A stretch of 64,000 nucleotides of DNA from Candidatus Thorarchaeota archaeon (GTDB taxonomy: Archaea; Asgardarchaeota; Thorarchaeia; Thorarchaeales; Thorarchaeaceae), in assembly GCA_048884965.1 (NCBI GenBank), contig JBHLQH010000005.1, forward strand, positions 1 through 64,000. Direction: 5' to 3'. The notes beneath the pieces are model-generated. The model worked only from the letters and a program-made list of their open reading frames with translations, made no database searches and was not told the origin of the DNA. Shown one piece after another: positions 21,706 through 42,668 of this stretch; position 1 is the first letter of the stretch, and each line of letters begins with the position of its first letter. A program made the translations under genes and the position numbers.

Positions 21706-22206
21706 TTGCCGTCACAGCTATCCGTCGATTATACAAAATGTACAGGTTGCAGGATTTGTGAGTTAGCTTGTACTGCAAGAAATGAAGGGAAATTTCAGCC
21801 CAGTCTAGCTCGTCTAAAGATTGTAAAATATGATGACCTCGGACTTGACATTCCTCATGTGTGTGGTCCTTGTGATGAAGCTCCTTGTGTTGATATCTGC
21901 CCTGTCTATGCTATGCGACGAGATCCAATCACTAAAATGACCTATCTTGATTCGGACAAATGCATTCTCTGCAAGTCGTGTGTCGGTGTATGTGTGCATG
22001 GAGTGATTCTATTAGACACTTGCAGTATGAAGATTATCAAATGTGACCATTGTGGTGGAGACCCCGAATGTGCCAAAGTGTGTCCAACGAACGCTATTCA
22101 GTATGGACCGATAAGGAAACTTACTACTCTAGGGCGCCATGATAAGCTTGCAACATATCTGGAGGAAATCAAGCGAGCAGCTGAAAAAGTGAGTGGGGAT
22201 GCATAG
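21706..22206 (+). CDS. Multi-[4Fe-4S] electron-transfer subunit of the adjacent AOR
   Basis: CTGCRICELAC, CGPC..PCVDICP, CILCKSCVGVC, CDHC...CAKVCP. Confidence 0.9.
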   Translation: MPSQLSVDYTKCTGCRICELACTARNEGKFQPSLARLKIVKYDDLGLDIPHVCGPCDEAPCVDICPVYAMRRDPITKMTYLDSDKCILCKSCVGVCVHGVILLDTCSMKIIKCDHCGGDPECAKVCPTNAIQYGPIRKLTTLGRHDKLATYLEEIKRAAEKVSGDA

Positions 22207-24082
22207 TTTGACAAAGGGTGGCTATTCTGGAAAAATACTCCGAGTGAAACTAACAGAGGGTGACTTTAAAGTTGATCCTCTCCCCAAGCAATGGATAAAG
22301 GACTATATAGGCGGCGATGGATTCGCAGTTCGTCTACTGTATGACGAAGTGCCTGCCAAAACAGATCCACTAAGCCCTGACAATAAGCTACTTGTGGCAA
22401 CAGGACCAATTACAGGTACTATTTGGCCTATGAGTGGCCGAACAGTCTTTATTTCAAAAGCTGCTCAGACTGGAATTTGGGGTGAGAGTCATGTTGGGGG
22501 ATTTCTTGGCCCCGAGCTAAAATATGCAGGATATGATATGTTGGTTGTTGAGGGGAAATCCGACTCCCCAGTTCATATCTCGATTAATGATGAGGATTTG
22601 GAACTGCTCGATGCAAATGATCATTGGGGAATGACAACTGATGCAGTTACATCTGCAGTTCGAAGATACCATTCAGACCCAGATGTTCAAGTGGCTGCAA
22701 TCGGACCTGCAGGTGAGCGACTTGTCCGATTTGCCTCTGTCATAGTAAACAACGCTCGTGCAGCTGGTCGTACTGGAATGGGTGCTGTGCTTGGGTCGAA
22801 GAATGTAAAGACCATTTCAATACGCGGACATGGAGCAGTTGAAGTAGCTGAGCATGAGGAGTTTGTCAATCTGGCGAAGAGAGCCCACAACAGAGTACGT
22901 AAGCATCCACAAGCCAGGGAGATGGGAAAATGGGGGACTTGGATTCTTACTGCAGTAAAGCAGGAAATCGGAGAGCTTCCAACCTATAATCATCGAACTG
23001 GTGTTTTTTCAGGATGGGAAACTCTTAGTGGTGAATACATACGTCCTAGATTTACCGTTAGTGATAGGGCGTGTTTTGGATGCAGTCTTGGATGCAAGAA
23101 GATGAACTATATACGCGAGGGACCTTTTGCAGGAACTCTTGAAGAGGGTCCTGAATATGAGGGTTTGATGGCGTTTGGGTCTCTCCTAGGAATAGATGAC
23201 TTTGCCACAACTCTGAAGGCCAACCAAATCTGCAACAAGTATGGAATGGATATTATCTCAGTTGGTGCTACCATTGCGTTTGCCATGGAAGCATATGAGA
23301 ATGGGATTATTGATAAGAATGATACAAATGGCCTTCATCTGGAATGGAGCAATCCCGAGGTTGCAATTAAGATTCTTCAAAACATCGCTGATCGTGAAGG
23401 CTTTGGTGATTTACTTGCTGAGGGAAGTAAGGTAGCTGCGGAACGGATTGGCAGGGGTGCGGAAGAGCTAGCGATGCATGTCAAAGGACTAGAAATATCT
23501 GGACAGGATGGTCGAACACATAGAAGCATCGGACTATCCCACGCTACCGGCGCACGAGGTGCAGACCACCTTCGTTCTCTTGTTGTAGTTGATCAACTGG
23601 GATATGAAGATGTAGCAACTGAACGCTGGGGTGCAGACAAACTCCCAGAAATTCTGAATCCCTATACCGAGAAATACAAAGCCACTGCTGTATTCGAAAC
23701 TGAGAATGCGTACTGCATTCGAGACACGCTCATTGTTTGCTGGTATTCAGTATCATGGCCTCCCATCTTTTGGATGAAGGACTTTGCTGAAATGCTGCCC
23801 CTTGTTACTGGCGAATCCAGCCTTGGAGATGTGAAGAAGCTGTCAGAAATAGGCGAACGTCAACTCGCACTGAAACGGTTGTTCAATGCAAGAGAGGGCA
23901 TCTCTCGAAAGGATGATAATCTGCCAAAACGGTTCACACATGAACCTATGCCTGAAGGTCCCGGCAAAGGTCAAGTGGTGGATTTGGAATCACTCCTTGA
24001 CGATTACTACAAATTAAGAGGGTGGGACAGAGAAACCGGTCTGCCTACAAAGGAAACTTTACAGAGACTATCCCTGAGCTAG
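22193..24082 (+). CDS. Tungsten aldehyde:ferredoxin oxidoreductase family protein
   Basis: AAGRTGMGAVLGSKN, CFGCSLGC, GPEYE, GMDIIS, DDYYKLRGWD. Confidence 0.93.
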   Translation: MGMHSLTKGGYSGKILRVKLTEGDFKVDPLPKQWIKDYIGGDGFAVRLLYDEVPAKTDPLSPDNKLLVATGPITGTIWPMSGRTVFISKAAQTGIWGESHVGGFLGPELKYAGYDMLVVEGKSDSPVHISINDEDLELLDANDHWGMTTDAVTSAVRRYHSDPDVQVAAIGPAGERLVRFASVIVNNARAAGRTGMGAVLGSKNVKTISIRGHGAVEVAEHEEFVNLAKRAHNRVRKHPQAREMGKWGTWILTAVKQEIGELPTYNHRTGVFSGWETLSGEYIRPRFTVSDRACFGCSLGCKKMNYIREGPFAGTLEEGPEYEGLMAFGSLLGIDDFATTLKANQICNKYGMDIISVGATIAFAMEAYENGIIDKNDTNGLHLEWSNPEVAIKILQNIADREGFGDLLAEGSKVAAERIGRGAEELAMHVKGLEISGQDGRTHRSIGLSHATGARGADHLRSLVVVDQLGYEDVATERWGADKLPEILNPYTEKYKATAVFETENAYCIRDTLIVCWYSVSWPPIFWMKDFAEMLPLVTGESSLGDVKKLSEIGERQLALKRLFNAREGISRKDDNLPKRFTHEPMPEGPGKGQVVDLESLLDDYYKLRGWDRETGLPTKETLQRLSLS

Positions 24083-27058: not shown

Positions 27059-29668
27059 ATGGAAAGCAAGAAACGTGGAGTTCAAACACCCAGCACCGTT
27101 GAAGCAATCAGAATGGCTTCAGCATCCATACTTGGAACCACAACAAGCAGGGGCTATCCTTTGGGTAGTGCAACTGGTTCTGGTAGTATGATGGAGGAGA
27201 ACTCTGAAACAGTCGCACTTAGTGTAACTCCTTTAATTTTTTCACTACGAGATGAGATGCTTGCATCAGAAAATCTTGAGCTACTATCATTGGAATGGGA
27301 CCTTGAGCGGACGCAGAGTCAAGAGGTCTTACCAGAGCACTTGATAATTGCTGGTGGTAAATCTGGAGATGTAGCATCACATGTGTGTGCACTGAGCTGG
27401 GAAACCGGAGTTATTGATCCATTTAGGATGGATAGCTATATTGCGACAATTGCGAAGAAGCTTTCAGATATTGAGAAATCGATTATAGGAAATGAATTGG
27501 ATTACGAGGTTGAAGGTATCAATGTTCTGAGAAGATTCTCTGATCGTTTGAACAATGTCACATTTGTTGAAATGCTTGATCGTCAATTCCAAGAAACATG
27601 GGAAACACAGAAACTTAAACCCGAGAATGTCGATATAGAAACTATTCTGAAGTACGAGTTTCGTGATGATTATTCTGCAAATCCTCCTGGACCAAGATTG
27701 CAGCGACGTAAATCTGCTGATTTCAATCTTCCAGAAGGAAATGAGAATGCGCTTCTTCTCCATCTTCAAAATAGAATCATTTCACCCAAAGGCCTTGATG
27801 CAATTGCTTCTCGTGTTCCTGATATGGGGCGCGATATCCTGTCCGAATTGAACGAATATGCATTCAGCATTGAAGAGGTCGATATAGCTAGAGCTACGAT
27901 TGCTGCATTGACGTCCTTCATTGGAAAGGATGAAGTACGACCTGCAGAATTGAATGACCTTTCGATAAAAGCTGCTGAGTTCACAGAGAAGATGTCAGAA
28001 GTCGCTGAAGTCTATTCTGATGTCCTAGAGAAACATTCCACCTCAGGTGCTCGCCTCGCATTGAATGATCATGAGCAGACTCTCAAAAATCATATTGAAG
28101 ATCACTCTTCGTCCTTAGACGCACTGCAAATTGGATTCGCTAAATCTCTACTTGGTCATATGATGACATCCATTAGACGAGAGTTCCCAATATCTGGTGA
28201 AATTCGTGCTTGGGAGCTCAAAGCTTCATTCTCATATTTTGCTGCCTTCACAAAAAGAGTTCTTGGTTACATCGCAAACGATTTGCAGCAATTCCTATTG
28301 ATCAACTCCGTCAAGAAGGTCATGAGAGAAACTCTCCAAGAATTTAGGAAAGAGGGAGAAGAGCAATCATCAAATAGTACAGAACTACTTCTTTTCCAAA
28401 AATTCTATTCAGAGCTATATTCTCTCCTGAACGCAATCATTGACAGAATCTCCTTTGAAGGAATTCAACGAAAAGAGGTTGAGTCTGTGATTGAGGACAT
28501 CACTGGTGAGATTAGTGACGAGTTCAAGAAAATAGATGTTTGGGATTTGATAGACTTCAATGATCTTGCTGAAATTGCAAGAGCTGAGATTAGGAATCGT
28601 GTGGAATCGCCCGAGGCGAAAGTTACCGCTGAATCACTTATTGCATTATTATCCGAGTTTGAACGATTTGTTGGAGAAACATTGCCTGATGTAGGAGATA
28701 CATTCCTTTCCAAGAAATCTCTCCGTTCTGTAATCAATACCATTGCTGAAACTGGCATCAATCTTCACCAAACACTCACCAAAATAGTAGAAAATGAAAC
28801 AGAGAAGCCTGATGAATGGAGGAAAGAGGCTTTCTTATGGATTGATCAGCTTAGCACACTGATTGATGAATCCATGCCCCTTTCAGAACAGATCTTCACT
28901 TTTATCAAGTTGGGCTATCTTCAGCTAGGCGAAGGAGCCACTCCTGAGGCTGTCCTTGAGCGAACTAGGGAAGAAGCCAAGGACCTAGAATCCGAATATA
29001 ACGAAGTAGTTTCTGAGTGGAAAGACAAATGCAGTGTTATTGAGCAAGAGAATCATCCTATTCGTGAAAATAATGAAAAACGCTCAGCAAAACTGAATGA
29101 AGCTGTCGTTCTATTTGAACAAGAGATGAAGCAATACACCGAGGCTTTTGAAACCCACAAGCAACTTCTTGCAGCATATCAACTCGAAGCAGATTCTACT
29201 GATTCAACTCCTCCAGCACCACCAAAGAAACCTGAAAGTCTGGAAGAGCGTAAGGCACGTATAGAGAAAGAAATCCCCCTATTGCAGGAGAAACCCAAAC
29301 CTCCCAAGCCTGAGCCCTCAGAAAAGATTCTAACCTATATCGAACTTCGCGACCTCTTGGATAAGGAATTTGAACGAATGAAACGAAGTCAAGAAAGGAT
29401 GGAACAGGTCTTTACACTCAAGCTCCGAGCGCTCAAATCCGAAGGTGCAAGAATAACTGAAGAGATAACGATTGGTATCAGCTCTGAATTTCTCGAATAC
29501 TTGATGAATGCAGCAATACGAAAATTGGGTCGTCTATTGCCTCGCGCGAAAAGAGCGTATCTAAGAGACCCTGAGGATTCGAGCTTAGTCTATCTAGTTA
29601 ACTACGAGTTTAAAGGCTCAATACTTACTGTGTCAATCGGAAACAACCTACTGAGGAGGGAGCAATAA
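27059..29668 (+). CDS. Large hypothetical helical/coiled-coil protein (869 aa)
   Basis: Long ORF, E/K/L-rich, Pro-rich turn within the C-terminal coiled coil; start uncertain. Confidence 0.8.
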   Translation: MESKKRGVQTPSTVEAIRMASASILGTTTSRGYPLGSATGSGSMMEENSETVALSVTPLIFSLRDEMLASENLELLSLEWDLERTQSQEVLPEHLIIAGGKSGDVASHVCALSWETGVIDPFRMDSYIATIAKKLSDIEKSIIGNELDYEVEGINVLRRFSDRLNNVTFVEMLDRQFQETWETQKLKPENVDIETILKYEFRDDYSANPPGPRLQRRKSADFNLPEGNENALLLHLQNRIISPKGLDAIASRVPDMGRDILSELNEYAFSIEEVDIARATIAALTSFIGKDEVRPAELNDLSIKAAEFTEKMSEVAEVYSDVLEKHSTSGARLALNDHEQTLKNHIEDHSSSLDALQIGFAKSLLGHMMTSIRREFPISGEIRAWELKASFSYFAAFTKRVLGYIANDLQQFLLINSVKKVMRETLQEFRKEGEEQSSNSTELLLFQKFYSELYSLLNAIIDRISFEGIQRKEVESVIEDITGEISDEFKKIDVWDLIDFNDLAEIARAEIRNRVESPEAKVTAESLIALLSEFERFVGETLPDVGDTFLSKKSLRSVINTIAETGINLHQTLTKIVENETEKPDEWRKEAFLWIDQLSTLIDESMPLSEQIFTFIKLGYLQLGEGATPEAVLERTREEAKDLESEYNEVVSEWKDKCSVIEQENHPIRENNEKRSAKLNEAVVLFEQEMKQYTEAFETHKQLLAAYQLEADSTDSTPPAPPKKPESLEERKARIEKEIPLLQEKPKPPKPEPSEKILTYIELRDLLDKEFERMKRSQERMEQVFTLKLRALKSEGARITEEITIGISSEFLEYLMNAAIRKLGRLLPRAKRAYLRDPEDSSLVYLVNYEFKGSILTVSIGNNLLRREQ

Positions 29669-32124
29669 TGTCAAGCTCATGGCTACTAAAAACTCGACAG
29701 ATGAGTGAAGCTGGTAAAGAGATCATCCTAACACAAGCTCTGGCGACTCATATGAGAAGTCCCCGTGATAGACAGTTAGTTATGGGTGCCTTCACTGAGA
29801 AACACCCTCTAGAAGATCTAATCTCATTCTTTGGTGCTTTCTACCTGTATCATTATCAAGGACTAAGATTGCTAAAGCTGGATGCTTCAGATGACCTATC
29901 GATAGAAGAACGAGAGGCTTTGACGAAGAAGGAACGGGAGCTACTCGAAATCGAAGTCCGGATGATGTTGGGGGAGAAGCAACGAGAAGAAATCGATGTT
30001 AGTCGAATAGCTAGCGAATTCATTGTTGAAGCCTGTAATTTGATAAAACAATCTCCCATATCTGAACGAATCGATTTGACGAATTCAATAATTGATTTGG
30101 TTCGCAAATTTGCCCATATGATTCCTACTGATTATTCAAGTAATAGTGAAATTGATTTCATTAATGAGATTACAGGATGGGCGACAAAATGGCGTCGTGA
30201 GCTGTACGTAAAGGCTTCAGGATTGAAAGAGTCCTCATTGTCTTTGAGGGAGGAGCTACTTCGTACTCATCATGAAGAGATTGCAGAATCAGCTGTTCTA
30301 AAGATGGGAGTTGAAGAGATAACTGGAAGTATGCGTTTGTGGGAAGGTCGACTCCTTACAGACAATCTACCAAAGGATATCTGGATGAAGATTGGTTCCG
30401 CGGTGATTGATTATCTCAAGAATAGCGGTAGTTCATTGGACTCCATCCGTACTGCGTATGAGATTCGAATGTCTGTTCTAGATTTGATGGAACAGGAAAT
30501 TGAGATGCCCACATCGTTAGAAGAATACGAATCTCTCATTGGGAAGGTTATAATTGGGGAGATTTCGAAAACTTCTCCAGATATCAATATCGTTGAGGTG
30601 ATATCGCATTTCGTTTCTATTCCCTCCGATGAGGTCCTTGCTGAACTCAGAACAAACGGTATTATGAATCCTGCAACAATTGTCGAAGGACTGAAGGCCA
30701 GTATCGATGAGGTTGAAACAGAGGGATCCGGAGAATCAGATGATACACAATCATCTACGAAAGTTGATCTCGAGGAGATAACTCGCAAGATTCGACGCCT
30801 AGAGAAACTAGAAGACACTCTAGAAAAACCTGTAAAGGGCATGCTCAAGGCAAAAGGTCTCAGGGCAGTGGAATTGGACAAAATATCTATTGAATTCTTG
30901 ACAAAGCCCAGAGCATCTCTTCTCGGATTCGAAATTCAGGTGCTTGAGGAATTAGGCAAAAAAACTCGTGTACCAGATCCTGACGAGGTTTCTAGTCTTC
31001 TCCAACTTCGAGAGGATTTCAAAAGTGGTTTACTTACAGGTGTCGAGATGAAAACATCTTCTGATTTGGGTCGACAAATTCAACATGGGAAGTCAATCGT
31101 TCAATTAAGGAATGACCTTGTGTGGTACTTCACTATTGGGATTCTGAAGAATCTCGCTAGAGTGATCGAAACATACATTCGATCGAAGCACGATATTCAA
31201 AGATCAAAAACACTTCTGAAGAGTATATATGAAGACTCTGAATCTAGTTTGCAGTTCTTAAGAGAGGAGATATTGATTGACCTACTCTCAATGCGGCTCT
31301 ATGAGATGAAGATGATTCATCCAGAACTTGATGCTAGCACAGTTTGTACTTGGTATCAGGCTAGACTATCAAATACAGATTTGGATAGTGCAAGAGAATT
31401 TCTAGAGAACAGCATATCTCCTGTGTTTGCAGGAATTGTGAGTTCTCCTCTTAATCTGACTGCACTTACGTTTGATAATTATGCAATAGCATATGATTTG
31501 ATGCAACGCTTCTTAAATCAACAGAGAACAGAGCGAGACATTCGCATTGAGCTGGTTTCGGAGGCTAAACTAGCTGAGGAACAAAAGAGAGAATCAGCAA
31601 AGTCCGGTCTTGATGTGATGAACTTCATTTACACCAAAGCGCACACTGTCTTCAGAGCTATTGGACGAGTAGGATCAAGAGGATTGGAATGGAACGCCAA
31701 TGATGATGCAAAGTGTGCCAATTTACTTGCATTCTTCCTGAAGACCAGTCGTGCACGTCCTATTTGCCAAGTTTGTGGGGAAATATCAGATGATAAGAAA
31801 TGCAGTACTCATGGAAAAGGTCAGATGAATGATTCCAATGATGTCGATAATCTATCTTGGTTCGTTATGCGTGCTATTACGGATATCAAGGAAGGATTGC
31901 TAGGCGCAAAAGCTGAACCCTTGACATGGTCAGAATCTAGACAAATTGTGCAAAGGGAAATCGCAAACCTTAGACGACGCGGTAAGATAACTAGCAAAAC
32001 CAATCTCAAAGCCATGCTGCCTGGAGAGATCAATTACATAGTTGGTCCAGCAATAGCTACGATTATTGGCAAGTACTTCAATGAATCTCTTGAATACGCT
32101 GCCCGAAGAGCTGGTATTGCATAG
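29668..32124 (+). CDS. Large hypothetical helical protein (818 aa) with CxxC...CxxH Zn finger
   Basis: TAATG overlap with the upstream gene, GAGG SD, CQVCG...CSTHG. Confidence 0.82.
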   Translation: MSSSWLLKTRQMSEAGKEIILTQALATHMRSPRDRQLVMGAFTEKHPLEDLISFFGAFYLYHYQGLRLLKLDASDDLSIEEREALTKKERELLEIEVRMMLGEKQREEIDVSRIASEFIVEACNLIKQSPISERIDLTNSIIDLVRKFAHMIPTDYSSNSEIDFINEITGWATKWRRELYVKASGLKESSLSLREELLRTHHEEIAESAVLKMGVEEITGSMRLWEGRLLTDNLPKDIWMKIGSAVIDYLKNSGSSLDSIRTAYEIRMSVLDLMEQEIEMPTSLEEYESLIGKVIIGEISKTSPDINIVEVISHFVSIPSDEVLAELRTNGIMNPATIVEGLKASIDEVETEGSGESDDTQSSTKVDLEEITRKIRRLEKLEDTLEKPVKGMLKAKGLRAVELDKISIEFLTKPRASLLGFEIQVLEELGKKTRVPDPDEVSSLLQLREDFKSGLLTGVEMKTSSDLGRQIQHGKSIVQLRNDLVWYFTIGILKNLARVIETYIRSKHDIQRSKTLLKSIYEDSESSLQFLREEILIDLLSMRLYEMKMIHPELDASTVCTWYQARLSNTDLDSAREFLENSISPVFAGIVSSPLNLTALTFDNYAIAYDLMQRFLNQQRTERDIRIELVSEAKLAEEQKRESAKSGLDVMNFIYTKAHTVFRAIGRVGSRGLEWNANDDAKCANLLAFFLKTSRARPICQVCGEISDDKKCSTHGKGQMNDSNDVDNLSWFVMRAITDIKEGLLGAKAEPLTWSESRQIVQREIANLRRRGKITSKTNLKAMLPGEINYIVGPAIATIIGKYFNESLEYAARRAGIA

Positions 32125-32456: not shown

Positions 32457-32566
32457 CCAATCACCTATTCTTTCCTTGAATGATTATCCAATTTGGTGTA
32501 TCGTTAGTCAGCTTGGAAACATATATACACAAGGTACTTTCGCAATTGCTTCATCGGGTGAATGAT

Positions 32567-33961
32567 ATGGGGAAAAAATTTGTGCCCAGAGGCGTTATGC
32601 CTGCTCTTGTAACCCCCTTCACGAAGGATGGAGATCTTATAGAAGACAGCTATAAGGAAATAATCGACTATGTCATAAGCCGAGGAGCTACTGGCGTTGT
32701 TCCAGCAGGGACAACTGGCGAGTTCGTCTATATGCGAACAGAAGAGCGGAAGAAGCTTCTTCGTTTGACAGTGGACATCGTTGATGGTCGTGTTCCAATT
32801 GTAGCCGGTACGGGACAGAATAGCACAAAGGCTACTATCGCATTGACAAAGTATGCTGAAGATATAGGATGCGATGCAGCATTAGTTATCTCTCCTTTCT
32901 ACTTGAGACCCGGTGACAAAGGTTACTATGAGCACTACGAAAATGTTGCTAATCAAGGTAATTTGCCAATTATCCTCTATAATATACCTCAATGCACTCT
33001 TGGTGTTCTCACCTCATCAGTCGTTGAAGATTTGGCAGAGCTTGACAATGTCGTTGGAATCAAAGATAGTAGTGGAGTGATTCCACATACTGTTGAATTG
33101 ATTCAGAAACTAAAAGGAAAGATACCTGTCCTCATCGGTCATGATGAGTGCTTCTTATCTGCAGTTGCTGCTGGTGCACAAGCTGCAATTCTTGCATCTG
33201 CGAATATTATCCCCCATATATGGCTGGAGATCATGGAAAAAGTTCAGAGTGGTGATATCCCAAGAGCAATGGAACTTCAACACTCAGCTCAAACATTCGC
33301 CAGAATCGTAACTCGAAATGGAGGAGCTCCTCCTGTTAAGGCCGCTTTCAAGATGATGGGCATCAAAGCTGGCAAATCAAGAATGCCGCTAGATACGGGT
33401 GGCACATTATCAGTGGAGTTGAAGGATGAGATACGATTGGAACTCGAAACCCTTGGTCTTCTTGAGCCATTACATACTTCATCCATTGATACAAACATAA
33501 GTATTGAGAAGCTGCTTGCAGATGAGGGTTTTGAGGTTGGCTCAGAGGTTCTTCTGGGATCCGCTTCGTCTGAAAGGATTGCGGTAAGTGTCGCCGCTGG
33601 TCCCAAGAAGGGTGTCCTAGGTAGGGCTTTTGTGAAGCTACTTACTTCGCCTCGAATTGGGCACGAAGCACTTTCTGTTATTCTGGAACCAAATCTTGCC
33701 GTTAAACCGAGCAGCCTCATGGTACCAATGAAGACCATCACCTCTATGAGACAGGCCTCTTTCTTCTATGGTCCTGTTCAGTCAGGTGCTGCAAAGGCTT
33801 TTGCAGGAATCTTGGAGCATGGTAAAATCCCCACAAAATCGATTCTTGAAGATGTTGTAATCCTTGCTGTGGATGTCGACCTTCAGTCCCACAATAGAAG
33901 ACAAGTCACATCTGAAACAGAGCAAGTTGTGTCGCAAGCGCTGGAGGAAATCTGGAGGTAA
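32567..33961 (+). CDS. DapA/NanA-family class I aldolase fused to a Fae-like domain (copy A)
   Basis: GTTGE, LYNIP, GIKDSS; C-terminal GPKKG..GRAF...GH..L..ILEPNL.VKP...RQA..FYGPVQ. Confidence 0.88.
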   Translation: MGKKFVPRGVMPALVTPFTKDGDLIEDSYKEIIDYVISRGATGVVPAGTTGEFVYMRTEERKKLLRLTVDIVDGRVPIVAGTGQNSTKATIALTKYAEDIGCDAALVISPFYLRPGDKGYYEHYENVANQGNLPIILYNIPQCTLGVLTSSVVEDLAELDNVVGIKDSSGVIPHTVELIQKLKGKIPVLIGHDECFLSAVAAGAQAAILASANIIPHIWLEIMEKVQSGDIPRAMELQHSAQTFARIVTRNGGAPPVKAAFKMMGIKAGKSRMPLDTGGTLSVELKDEIRLELETLGLLEPLHTSSIDTNISIEKLLADEGFEVGSEVLLGSASSERIAVSVAAGPKKGVLGRAFVKLLTSPRIGHEALSVILEPNLAVKPSSLMVPMKTITSMRQASFFYGPVQSGAAKAFAGILEHGKIPTKSILEDVVILAVDVDLQSHNRRQVTSETEQVVSQALEEIWR

Positions 33962-33966
33962 ATAAG

Positions 33967-35442
33967 ATGAGTGAGAAATTCAAGTTCAAAGGTGTTTATC
34001 CCGCATTGGTAACGCCCTTCAATGAAGGTGGGATAGATGAAGCAAAATATCGTGTTCTCATCGATTACGTGATTAGATCTGGAGCTACCGGGATTGTTCC
34101 TTGTGGCACAACTGGTGAATTCACTTCAATGCGATTTGAGGAGAAAGTTGAGGCCATTCGAATTGCATGCGATGCCGCAAAAGGAAAGGTCCCAGTCCTT
34201 GCGGGAACTGGTGCTGCATATACTGGTGACGCAATAAAGATTACTAGAATGGCTGCAGAGTATGGAGCTGATGCAGCCTTAGTAGTTTCACCGTACTTCA
34301 TGAAACCCTCGAACAAAGAACTATTCGAGCACTACGAGAGAGTTGCCAACAATTCAGATATTCCGATCTTTCTCTACAATATCCCACAAGTCACTGGAGT
34401 GCCAATACACTGGACCGTTGTTGATGGTCTTCGTGAGATTGATGGCATTATCGGAATGAAAGACTCAAGTGGTGATTTGGTCAATTTGACTACCATCCTA
34501 GTGCGAAGACCGGATGATTTCCAAGTTGTTATTGGACATGATGAAGTTGCGTTACCTGCTTTGGCGAGTGGGTGTGATGGTGCAATTCTAGCAAGTGCAA
34601 ACATCTTCCCGAACAGATACATCAAAATGCAGAGTGCACTCGCGAATGGAGATTTGAAGGAAGCATTACTGGTACAACGAAGCATTCAGAAGACTGTACG
34701 AATCATTGTTAATCGGGGCGGTGGACTAGCAGTTAAGGTTGCTCTAAATATGATGGGAATCCCTGTCGGTCTGGCTAGGAAACCTCTTCTGAAAGGAGAT
34801 TCGATGTCCTATGAGGATATTGATGAACTAAGGACTTGCTTAGAGGACCTCCAGTTGATTCCTAAGGGTCCTGTGACATTCAAGATGGGCAAGAAGTCTG
34901 TCATTTCAGAAACCTATCCCAAAGCTGTAGGAATGGTCCCTAGTATTGTCGAGGATCTTACTTTATTGCATGGAGAGTCTCTTTGTGGTGCAGGAAATGA
35001 GGTGGCACATGTTGATCTTGTACTAGGAATTCGTGATGGTCCATTGAGTACTGCTTTGGAAGGCGCTGGTTCGATTCGCGAAGGCTATCATACTGCGGAG
35101 ATCATCAAGGATCTTCAGCCAACGACTGTCTTTGCACCAACCGTTACGATTACTCATGAGCACCACAAGAAGATGGTACATGATTTTGCAAAGAAGGCCG
35201 TCATTGATGCCGTGAAGAGAAGTATCACTGATGGAGTCATTCCCGATGAACTGGTTCCTGATATTCTCATTATGGCGAATGTCTTTGTGCATCCCAATGC
35301 CGTTAATCCTCGAAGAGTGCATATCAACAATTTTCGTGCTGTCCGTCATGCAATTAGACGCGCAATCGAAGGCAGATTCTCCACTGATGAGATAATTGCT
35401 AGGAAGGAATCTGCACGGCATCCGTTTGCATACAATCCATGA
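33967..35442 (+). CDS. DapA/NanA-family class I aldolase fused to a Fae domain (copy B)
   Basis: GTTGE, LYNIP, GMKDSS; C-terminal GESLCGAGNEVAHVDL...VFVHP...AIRRAIEG...SARHPF. Confidence 0.9.
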   Translation: MSEKFKFKGVYPALVTPFNEGGIDEAKYRVLIDYVIRSGATGIVPCGTTGEFTSMRFEEKVEAIRIACDAAKGKVPVLAGTGAAYTGDAIKITRMAAEYGADAALVVSPYFMKPSNKELFEHYERVANNSDIPIFLYNIPQVTGVPIHWTVVDGLREIDGIIGMKDSSGDLVNLTTILVRRPDDFQVVIGHDEVALPALASGCDGAILASANIFPNRYIKMQSALANGDLKEALLVQRSIQKTVRIIVNRGGGLAVKVALNMMGIPVGLARKPLLKGDSMSYEDIDELRTCLEDLQLIPKGPVTFKMGKKSVISETYPKAVGMVPSIVEDLTLLHGESLCGAGNEVAHVDLVLGIRDGPLSTALEGAGSIREGYHTAEIIKDLQPTTVFAPTVTITHEHHKKMVHDFAKKAVIDAVKRSITDGVIPDELVPDILIMANVFVHPNAVNPRRVHINNFRAVRHAIRRAIEGRFSTDEIIARKESARHPFAYNP

Positions 35443-35452
35443 TTTCACTATA

Positions 35453-35480
35453 TAGGGGCCTTGAGCCCCTACACTTTTTC
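35453..35480 (+). terminator. Hairpin plus U-tract closing the aldolase-Fae operon
   Basis: TAGGGGC/GCCCCTA then CACTTTTTC. Confidence 0.65.
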
Positions 35481-41681: not shown

Positions 41682-42668
41682 ATTAGCCGCAAGAAATGGG
41701 GAAAATCAGCCACGAAAACCGATAAGGTGATTCGTGACGCGATTCCAAAAACCGAAACATTGAGTGAGATTAATCAATACCTAGCAAAAGCAAGGTCTGT
41801 TACACCTTTTGACTTAGCGAACAGATTCGGGATTCGTATGAGTGTAGCTCGAAAGATTCTGCGAGAGAAAGAATCAGATGGTTCAGTAGTTCCATATATT
41901 CGAGAGAGTGGATTTGTTGTCTACACGACCCCCGCGGAGATTGCTAAGAGGGAAGGTGGAGCTCCTATTATGACAGCTGATGTTCTCGAAGAAATTTCTG
42001 CTTCTGTTACACACGAATCAGTCGTCGATGATGATATGGAAGCGGCTTTGGCTGCAGCAGCATCTTCAGCTGGTACAGTTGTTAAGCCAAGCAAACTTGC
42101 CTATAGACGACGTGAAGTCGGAGAGCGTAAGGAACGAAAAGAGTCTCGCCCTGAGATTGTAGTTGAACCTTTGACCAAGGAAGAAGAAGAGCCTGTAAAG
42201 AAGGTCGAAGAGAGACCTAGGAAGGTCGAAGAGAAGCCAAAGAAGGTCGAAGAGAAGCCAAAGAAGGTCGAAGAGAAGCCAAAGAAGGTCGAAGAGAAGC
42301 CAAAGAAGGCTGAAGAGAAGCCAAAGAAGGCTGAAGAGAAGCCAAAGAAGGCTGAAGAGAAGCCAAAGAAGGTCGAAGAGAAGCCAAAGAAGGTCGAAGA
42401 GAAGCCAAAGAAGGTCGAAGAGAAGCCAAAGAAAGCTGAGGAGAAAACTACCAAGAAGGTCAAGAAGCCTGAGCTTGAGGATATCGATGGCATTGGACCC
42501 AAGACTGCAGAAACTCTCCGAGCTAGTGGTTTCAAAACAGTAGCCTCAATATCAAAGGCCACTGTTGAAAAGCTCTCCCAGAAGGTTGATGGCATTGCAG
42601 AAACAACTGCAACTCAATACATCGAATCAGCGAAAAAGCTAATCGATGAATATGAGAAATCGAAATAG
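41682..42668 (+). CDS. rps25e: Ribosomal protein eS25 domain plus heptad-repeat linker plus HhH domain; probable ATT start
   Basis: KKWGK...VTPFDLANRFGIRMSVARKILRE...VVYT; C-terminal LEDIDGIGPKTA...VDGIA; the first canonical start (GTG 41727) would cut off KKW. Confidence 0.8.
   Translation: MSRKKWGKSATKTDKVIRDAIPKTETLSEINQYLAKARSVTPFDLANRFGIRMSVARKILREKESDGSVVPYIRESGFVVYTTPAEIAKREGGAPIMTADVLEEISASVTHESVVDDDMEAALAAAASSAGTVVKPSKLAYRRREVGERKERKESRPEIVVEPLTKEEEEPVKKVEERPRKVEEKPKKVEEKPKKVEEKPKKVEEKPKKAEEKPKKAEEKPKKAEEKPKKVEEKPKKVEEKPKKVEEKPKKAEEKTTKKVKKPELEDIDGIGPKTAETLRASGFKTVASISKATVEKLSQKVDGIAETTATQYIESAKKLIDEYEKSK
42198..42449 (+). repeat. 12 x 21-bp coding tandem repeat (KK[V/A]EEKP)
   Basis: AAGAAGG(TC/CT)GAAGAGAAGCCA units; first two and last units slightly diverged. 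Confidence 0.95.

Follow-up and report, generated by a model that had tools for sequence, protein, structure and literature searches.

Which reaction is catalyzed by two adjacent archaeal genes, labeled dapA, whose products each join a DapA-type aldolase barrel to a formaldehyde-activating enzyme (Fae) domain? The two genes, here called A and B, lie on the forward strand of a 64,000-nucleotide stretch of a Candidatus Thorarchaeota genome (GenBank assembly GCA_048884965.1, contig JBHLQH010000005.1, positions 1 to 64,000), referred to below as the window. They are 36% identical and stand 5 bp apart. Gene A likely starts at the ATG at 32567, just behind a GGTGA element, in an open reading frame (ORF) that opens at 32480, and a GGAGG element for gene B overlaps the end of gene A. 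The short gap and the hairpin with T-run behind gene B agree with the original prediction of a tandem pair with one terminator. Both products match PF00701 (E values of ~1e-73) and PF08714 (5.5e-24 and 2.2e-29; 85 and 103 bits against a cutoff of 27) above the Pfam cutoffs, which confirms the predicted architecture and identifies the C-terminal domains as Fae. No other dihydrodipicolinate synthase (DHDPS)-family gene and no other Fae gene was found in the genome. We find that the A/B system is real, conserved, and mis-annotated. A and B very probably form one hetero-oligomeric enzyme, not two enzymes, and a heteromer that links 4-hydroxy-2-oxobutyrate (HOB) to tetrahydromethanopterin (H4MPT) is the best explanation of the pair, one that we regard as probable.

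The central observation concerns the Fae domains. The original prediction credited each gene with a complete barrel and an Fae-like domain; barrel and domain are present in both, but the Fae domains are incomplete, scoring 78.6 and 117.5 against the TIGR03126 cutoff of 118, which single-gene fusions pass at 190 to 210. These single fusions, from other Asgard archaea and Bathyarchaeia, set the conserved residues, and we compared 97 of them with 111 A homologs and 106 B homologs. A and B hold complementary halves: 71 Fae positions are at least 90% conserved in the single fusions, and 17 of these are kept in A only, 32 in B only, 9 in both, and 13 in neither. The A half lacks GE, the catalytic His and Asp, VFVHP, NN, and the C-terminal HPF, and the B half lacks EPNL, RQAS, and GP. 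Neither A nor B holds both faces of the inter-subunit pocket in one chain, and together they supply the complete set. The C-terminal domains of A and B align to Fae of Methylorubrum (E values of 9e-10 and 4e-21), with His348 and Asp350 of B at His22 and Asp24, the former of which we take to be the catalytic residue. The A-then-B order and the identical split recur in every pair examined from other lineages.

The Fae cofactor is bound between subunits. A two-chain model predicts contact between A and B with a score of 0.86, compared to 0.00 for the best control; of 80 solved complexes, 58 pass the mark applied to such scores, as do 2 of 110 mismatched pairs. Contacts agree between runs to at least 81%, the partner pLDDT is at least 80, and the model sets the retained face of A against the retained face of B. 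When model and conservation are combined, the columns specific to a single face are retained by the subunit expected for that face, 7:0 and 11:0. The pair would be a clean case of a duplicated oligomer that splits one active site between paralogs.

Both barrels carry the Schiff-base motifs GTTGE, YNIP, and KDSS, and at the position of Arg138 in Escherichia coli DHDPS A has Cys and B has Val, as had been read from the motifs beforehand. This Cys occurs in 99% of the 111 A homologs and 92% of the 97 single fusions. The earlier doubt about the dapA label is upheld by the substitution and by dapB (PF01113), which was not found in this genome (95.7% complete). That A and B are the true DHDPS of lysine synthesis, as the database label has it, now seems very improbable. 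The pair does pass TIGR00674 (DHDPS; 224 and 232 bits against a cutoff of 206), its barrels have DHDPS as their closest PDB matches, and asd and the aspartate kinase gene lysC are present. However, because asd and lysC are clustered with a gene for homocysteine synthesis (PF01837; L285:539-5075, G000 C33), aspartate semialdehyde is accounted for, and some other Asgard fusion carriers own a separate unfused DapA-family gene. We rejected the DHDPS reading on the Arg position and dapB. The cross-subunit Tyr is Phe in 105 of 106 Thorarchaeia B proteins and is kept in 98 of 111 A proteins; if the tight dimer is A-B, the aldolase site of B would be complete and that of A would not. As a separate observation, both barrels of one A-type and B-type pair (P0248 and P0251) lack the Schiff-base Lys and other motifs, and their Fae motifs remain; judged from sequence, this is possibly a noncatalytic pair.

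The fusion extends well beyond this genome. Of the 65 genomes in the same family, 62 have Fae matches, nearly all with exactly two weak ones, and in the 10 such genomes checked the two matches are an adjacent A-then-B pair. Other Asgard lineages have a single fusion of ~495 amino acids with an intact Fae domain, usually besides Fae-Hps. A scan of GTDB recovered 438 relatives; among the 80 best, 77 are full-length fusions, and almost all of these are labeled Bathyarchaeia. A/B pairs outside Thorarchaeia occur in other Asgard families, on contigs labeled Thermoproteota or Korarchaeota, and on high-GC metagenome contigs. A tree of the barrels places 15 of 17 B-types on one branch (100/98) and the single fusions on another (94/86). 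The pairs in other lineages and the shared B-type branch led us to reject a duplication confined to Thorarchaeia, and the pairs may have a single origin. The tree does not resolve the A-types and gives no order of events. Besides the complementary Fae halves, the original prediction missed that the fusion is widespread and frequently encoded by one gene and that it has a TIM-barrel partner. We found no description of it in the open literature (subscription journals lay outside the search), in line with the earlier statement that no DapA-Fae fusion is known to have been characterized; a paper on Atabeyarchaeia mentions only Fae-Hps.

Single fusions adjoin one of two genes, X (~428 amino acids, no assigned family) or Y (~315 amino acids, U32-like). 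Near Bathyarchaeia fusions, X is found in 64 and Y in 5 of 77 loci (together 69), mostly adjacent, and one or the other lies near the single fusion in 20 of 20 Asgard loci. X and Y never occur together in 80 Asgard genomes, and one of them is present in 30 of the 32 fusion carriers compared to 8 of the 48 others; within one Asgard family, the match between X or Y and the fusion is 10 of 10. Because X and Y fill the same syntenic slot in two sister genomes (L154 and L160), they are suggested to do one job. Their homology is weak (probability 38%, E value of 3e-4). X has no match in Pfam, NCBIfam, or PDB sequences; its structural model (pLDDT of 84) is a TIM barrel, and a fold search returns the generic TIM barrel with no clear best family. 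The copy of X in the present genome is on a different contig (L135:8328-9623, G000 C17), between ECF S-component-like and rubrerythrin-like genes, and its 428-residue product is 65% identical to the X beside Lokiarchaeia fusions. In an even sample of Bathyarchaeia, X occurs in 7 of 19 fusion carriers and in 0 of 42 others, so the partner is linked but X need not be present. A dapA of Polaromonas found near X retains the canonical Arg, and we did not take it as support. Separately, in three Thorarchaeia genomes (L156, L157, and L159) X has a long threonine-synthase-family gene two genes away; no close ortholog of that gene occurs here.

The neighbors of X point toward HOB and homoserine. Four Asgard genomes that have neither Fae nor the fusion carry an operon led by X that also encodes a class I aminotransferase, homoserine dehydrogenase (Hom), and an aldehyde:ferredoxin oxidoreductase (AOR); the loci with this gene content, in varying order, are L150:8304-13759, L151-L153, L230, and L234. 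asd and thrB were not found in these four genomes. The operon fits a route between HOB, homoserine, aspartate semialdehyde, and aspartate in either direction and is a possible unrecognized homoserine/aspartate route. Metagenomes contributed five further X-Hom loci. Of 80 metagenome loci with X, 34 (L187:4739-5590 and 33 others among L173-L252) have a PanB-family gene beside X or at most two genes away, frequently in the order Lrp-PanB-X-aminotransferase. All 18 of the X-linked PanBs that were aligned have Leu, Ser, and Ile at the positions of Val179, Gly201, and Val214 in the PanB of E. coli and of the present genome. Two of these positions line the pocket for the methyl groups of the substrate, where the bulkier residues would suit pyruvate, and this group is a candidate pyruvate hydroxymethyltransferase mis-annotated as panB, as far as sequence can tell.

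The distribution of hom follows that of the fusion inversely. Homoserine dehydrogenase is present in 2 of 19 fusion-positive compared to 33 of 42 fusion-negative Bathyarchaeia and in 6 of 32 compared to 25 of 48 Asgard genomes. For IlvC, the one control, the Bathyarchaeia counts are 13 of 19 and 36 of 42, which does not support general amino acid auxotrophy as the cause of the exclusion. Among thrB-positive Bathyarchaeia, hom is missing from 6 of 6 fusion carriers and 5 of 26 noncarriers. One Bathyarchaeia genome has the fusion, thrB, and thrC consecutively on one strand (L265:8938-12726), with the fusion at the usual position of hom, and in one genome hom lies directly downstream of the fusion. 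In the present genome, hom and thrB were not found at the completeness given above, and the Hps domain has no match, NF009833 matching the Fae part only. The H4MPT pathway genes mch, mtd, and ftr are present alongside the fusion. The two grounds for refutation in the original prediction that could be examined here, C-terminal domains unrelated to Fae and a carrier genome lacking the H4MPT pathway, were therefore not borne out.

We propose that A/B would act as an H4MPT-dependent pyruvate hydroxymethyltransferase (pyruvate + methylene-H4MPT + H2O = HOB + H4MPT). The Fae site would lie at the A/B interface, with the His/Asp face contributed by B and the EPNL/GP face by A, and would exchange formaldehyde with H4MPT. 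The class I aldolase barrel would hold pyruvate as a Lys enamine and add or release formaldehyde. HOB would be interconverted with homoserine through a general aminotransferase and would also be linked to X or Y. The reaction of pyruvate and formaldehyde to HOB, offered as an example in the original prediction, has gained independent support from three gene contexts that converge on HOB: the operon led by X, the X-linked PanB group, and the near exclusion of hom by the fusion; substrate, channeling, and direction are inferred. Promiscuous pyruvate aldolases interconvert HOB and pyruvate plus formaldehyde (PMC13279387, PMC7918591).

The net reaction probably lies close enough to equilibrium to proceed in both directions. 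Given HOB chemistry, we lean slightly toward synthesis, supplying homoserine or HOB in place of homoserine dehydrogenase. The exclusion of hom, the thrB-thrC cluster, and the near-universal retention in Thorarchaeia speak for it, and by analogy the normal direction of PanB would count on the same side. Cleavage, to which we give a little less than an even chance, is favored by sugar-acid catabolic clusters that also contain X or Y, by one pair in an MttB/proline-racemase uptake cluster, and by the Asgard carriers tested, which have no thrB. Fae-Hps works by capturing released formaldehyde, and such capture is strongly favorable, which also counts for cleavage. In Thorarchaeia, where thrB was not found, the two directions are about evenly matched.

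Other readings of the same genes have to be set against HOB chemistry. A heteromeric aldolase-Fae could serve another hydroxymethylated 2-oxo acid, such as a 3-substituted HOB or a branched 2-keto-3-deoxy sugar acid losing formaldehyde, in a catabolic route fed by X or Y; we consider this unlikely. Bacterial X/Y loci hold UxaA-family or enolase-family dehydratases, a lactonase-like gene, an FGGY kinase, and sugar ABC transporters. One A/B pair (L142:4375-13332) keeps company with an aminotransferase, two MttB-family methyltransferases, a corrinoid protein, a proline-racemase-family gene, and an ABC transporter, and the A and B barrels diverge at many conserved positions, permitting two specificities. 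However, the hom exclusion, the thrB-thrC cluster, and the X-aminotransferase-Hom-AOR operon all indicate an unbranched C4 skeleton and would be left unexplained. More doubtful still is an uncoupled pair of domains, a pyruvate aldolase for an aldehyde other than formaldehyde (HOGA-, KDG-, or deaminase-like) joined to an Fae scavenger or scaffold. The match of the barrels to many DapA/NanA-family models agrees with it, and general scavenging is possible for the sole Fae genes of a genome. However, Asgard archaea, Bathyarchaeia, and other lineages have all kept the fusion, frequently in addition to a separate Fae-Hps; the curated cutoffs for NanA, KDG aldolase, KdgD, HpaI-type aldolases, and HOGA are not reached by any of the scores, all of which are well below; and the occurrence of the partner in a PanB-type context implies that a hydroxymethyl group is transferred. 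An H4MPT-dependent substitute for PanB, making ketopantoate for coenzyme A, would perform the same type of reaction and would suit the frequent company of X and PanB-family genes, but this genome and 11 of 11 related Thorarchaeia carry an ordinary panB, and we rejected this reading as barely credible.

Several points weigh against HOB/H4MPT chemistry in an A/B heteromer. The two-chain model supports A/B binding without proving it because its pass may stem from likeness to solved Fae. The functional evidence consists entirely of gene associations within a set of related genomes, and since these genomes are kin, p-values calculated from the distribution counts are overstated, and the counts are suggestive and not statistical proof. 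X is missing from 12 of the 19 fusion-positive Bathyarchaeia, and no Y lies beside their fusions, although Y was not searched genome-wide there. Fold does not assign a reaction to X or Y. The fusion-thrB-thrC arrangement is a single locus, thrB not being found in ~110 other fusion loci. The fate of homoserine in Thorarchaeia is unexplained because thrB was not found in any Asgard fusion carrier tested.

The proposed enzyme shares parts with several known systems. Like Fae-Hps (NF009833), it fuses Fae to a formaldehyde-exchanging aldolase and would couple an aldol step to methylene-H4MPT; unlike Fae-Hps, it has an N-terminal Schiff-base DapA-type barrel in place of Hps and an Fae site split over two genes. 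Both C-terminal domains align with Fae of Methylorubrum extorquens (PDB 1Y5Y/1Y60), and the His and Asp are found in B, but each copy holds part of the conserved set, scores below the TIGR03126 cutoff, and is fused, not stand-alone. The fold, the Thr-Thr pair, the Tyr, and the Lys are those of the DHDPS/NAL class I pyruvate aldolases (DapA, YagE, YjhH, KDG aldolase, and HOGA), whereas A and B lack the DHDPS Arg, have motifs of their own (YNIPQxT, GHDE, and ILASAN), and are fused to Fae. With PanB and serine hydroxymethyltransferase (SHMT), the proposed net reaction would share pterin-linked hydroxymethyl transfer to a C-nucleophile. A PanB-family gene holds the equivalent place beside X in many other loci, and PanB would be the folate analog of aldolase plus Fae. 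A and B differ from PanB and SHMT in having no sequence homology to them, two active sites, free or channeled formaldehyde, and H4MPT in place of folate. The proposed chemistry is also that of the synthetic homoserine cycle (HOB aldolase plus HOB aminotransferase; PMC7918591), of which HOB is an intermediate; that cycle was engineered from promiscuous enzymes, whereas A/B would be a dedicated natural enzyme. HOB has been termed non-natural (PMC13279387).

We tentatively suggest, with slightly less than even confidence, a dedicated natural route between the H4MPT C1 pool and the homoserine node (pyruvate + methylene-H4MPT = HOB = homoserine). It would be core in Thorarchaeia, common in Bathyarchaeia and other Asgard archaea, and would displace homoserine dehydrogenase; it would have a folate-linked PanB-like counterpart and a U32-fold partner family, and in some lineages it would depend on an obligate heteromer with a split Fae site. 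If this is true, hundreds of archaeal dapA annotations are wrong, and lysine synthesis inferred from them needs review. It would also mean an unrecognized junction between the methyl branch of the Wood-Ljungdahl pathway and amino acid metabolism in Asgard archaea and Bathyarchaeia and a natural counterpart of a reaction that to date has been described in engineered microbes only. Because the literature consulted treats HOB as a non-natural intermediate, a dedicated HOB enzyme would be directly useful for synthetic formaldehyde or methanol assimilation. The X and Y families and the X-linked PanB paralogs become testable targets.

Features of the A/B locus in the window
Feature	Positions	Strand	Remarks
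Gene A, DapA-family class I aldolase + Fae half-domain	32567-33961	+	464 aa
Gene B, DapA-family class I aldolase + complementary Fae half-domain	33967-35442	+	491 aa
Aldolase barrel of A	32588-33394	+	Thr49/Thr50, cross-subunit Tyr112, Tyr138, Cys143 at the DHDPS Arg position, Schiff-base Lys166
Aldolase barrel of B	33982-34815	+	Thr48/Thr49, Phe111 at the cross-subunit Tyr position, Tyr137, Val142 at the DHDPS Arg position, Lys165
Fae half A	33554-33946	+	GHE..ILEPNL, RQAS, GPxQ face retained
Fae half B	34972-35427	+	GE, His348/Asp350, VFVHP, NN, HPF retained
Terminator-like G+C hairpin (7 pairs), then T-run	35453-35471	+	Consensus match only

Elsewhere in the window, two large ORFs of 869 and 818 amino acids with an overlapping junction occupy 27059-32124 on the forward strand and have no Pfam match; in other Thorarchaeia (L166, L168, and L169), similar-looking genes lie directly 5' of the A/B pair. 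An AOR gene is found at 22193-24082 on the same strand, ~8 kb upstream of A/B, and the genome has ~10 AOR-family matches. On the reverse strand, 41727-42668 encodes a 313-residue protein in which a long stretch of short repeats rich in Lys, Glu, and Pro is flanked by a small N-terminal domain and a helix-hairpin-helix-like C terminus.

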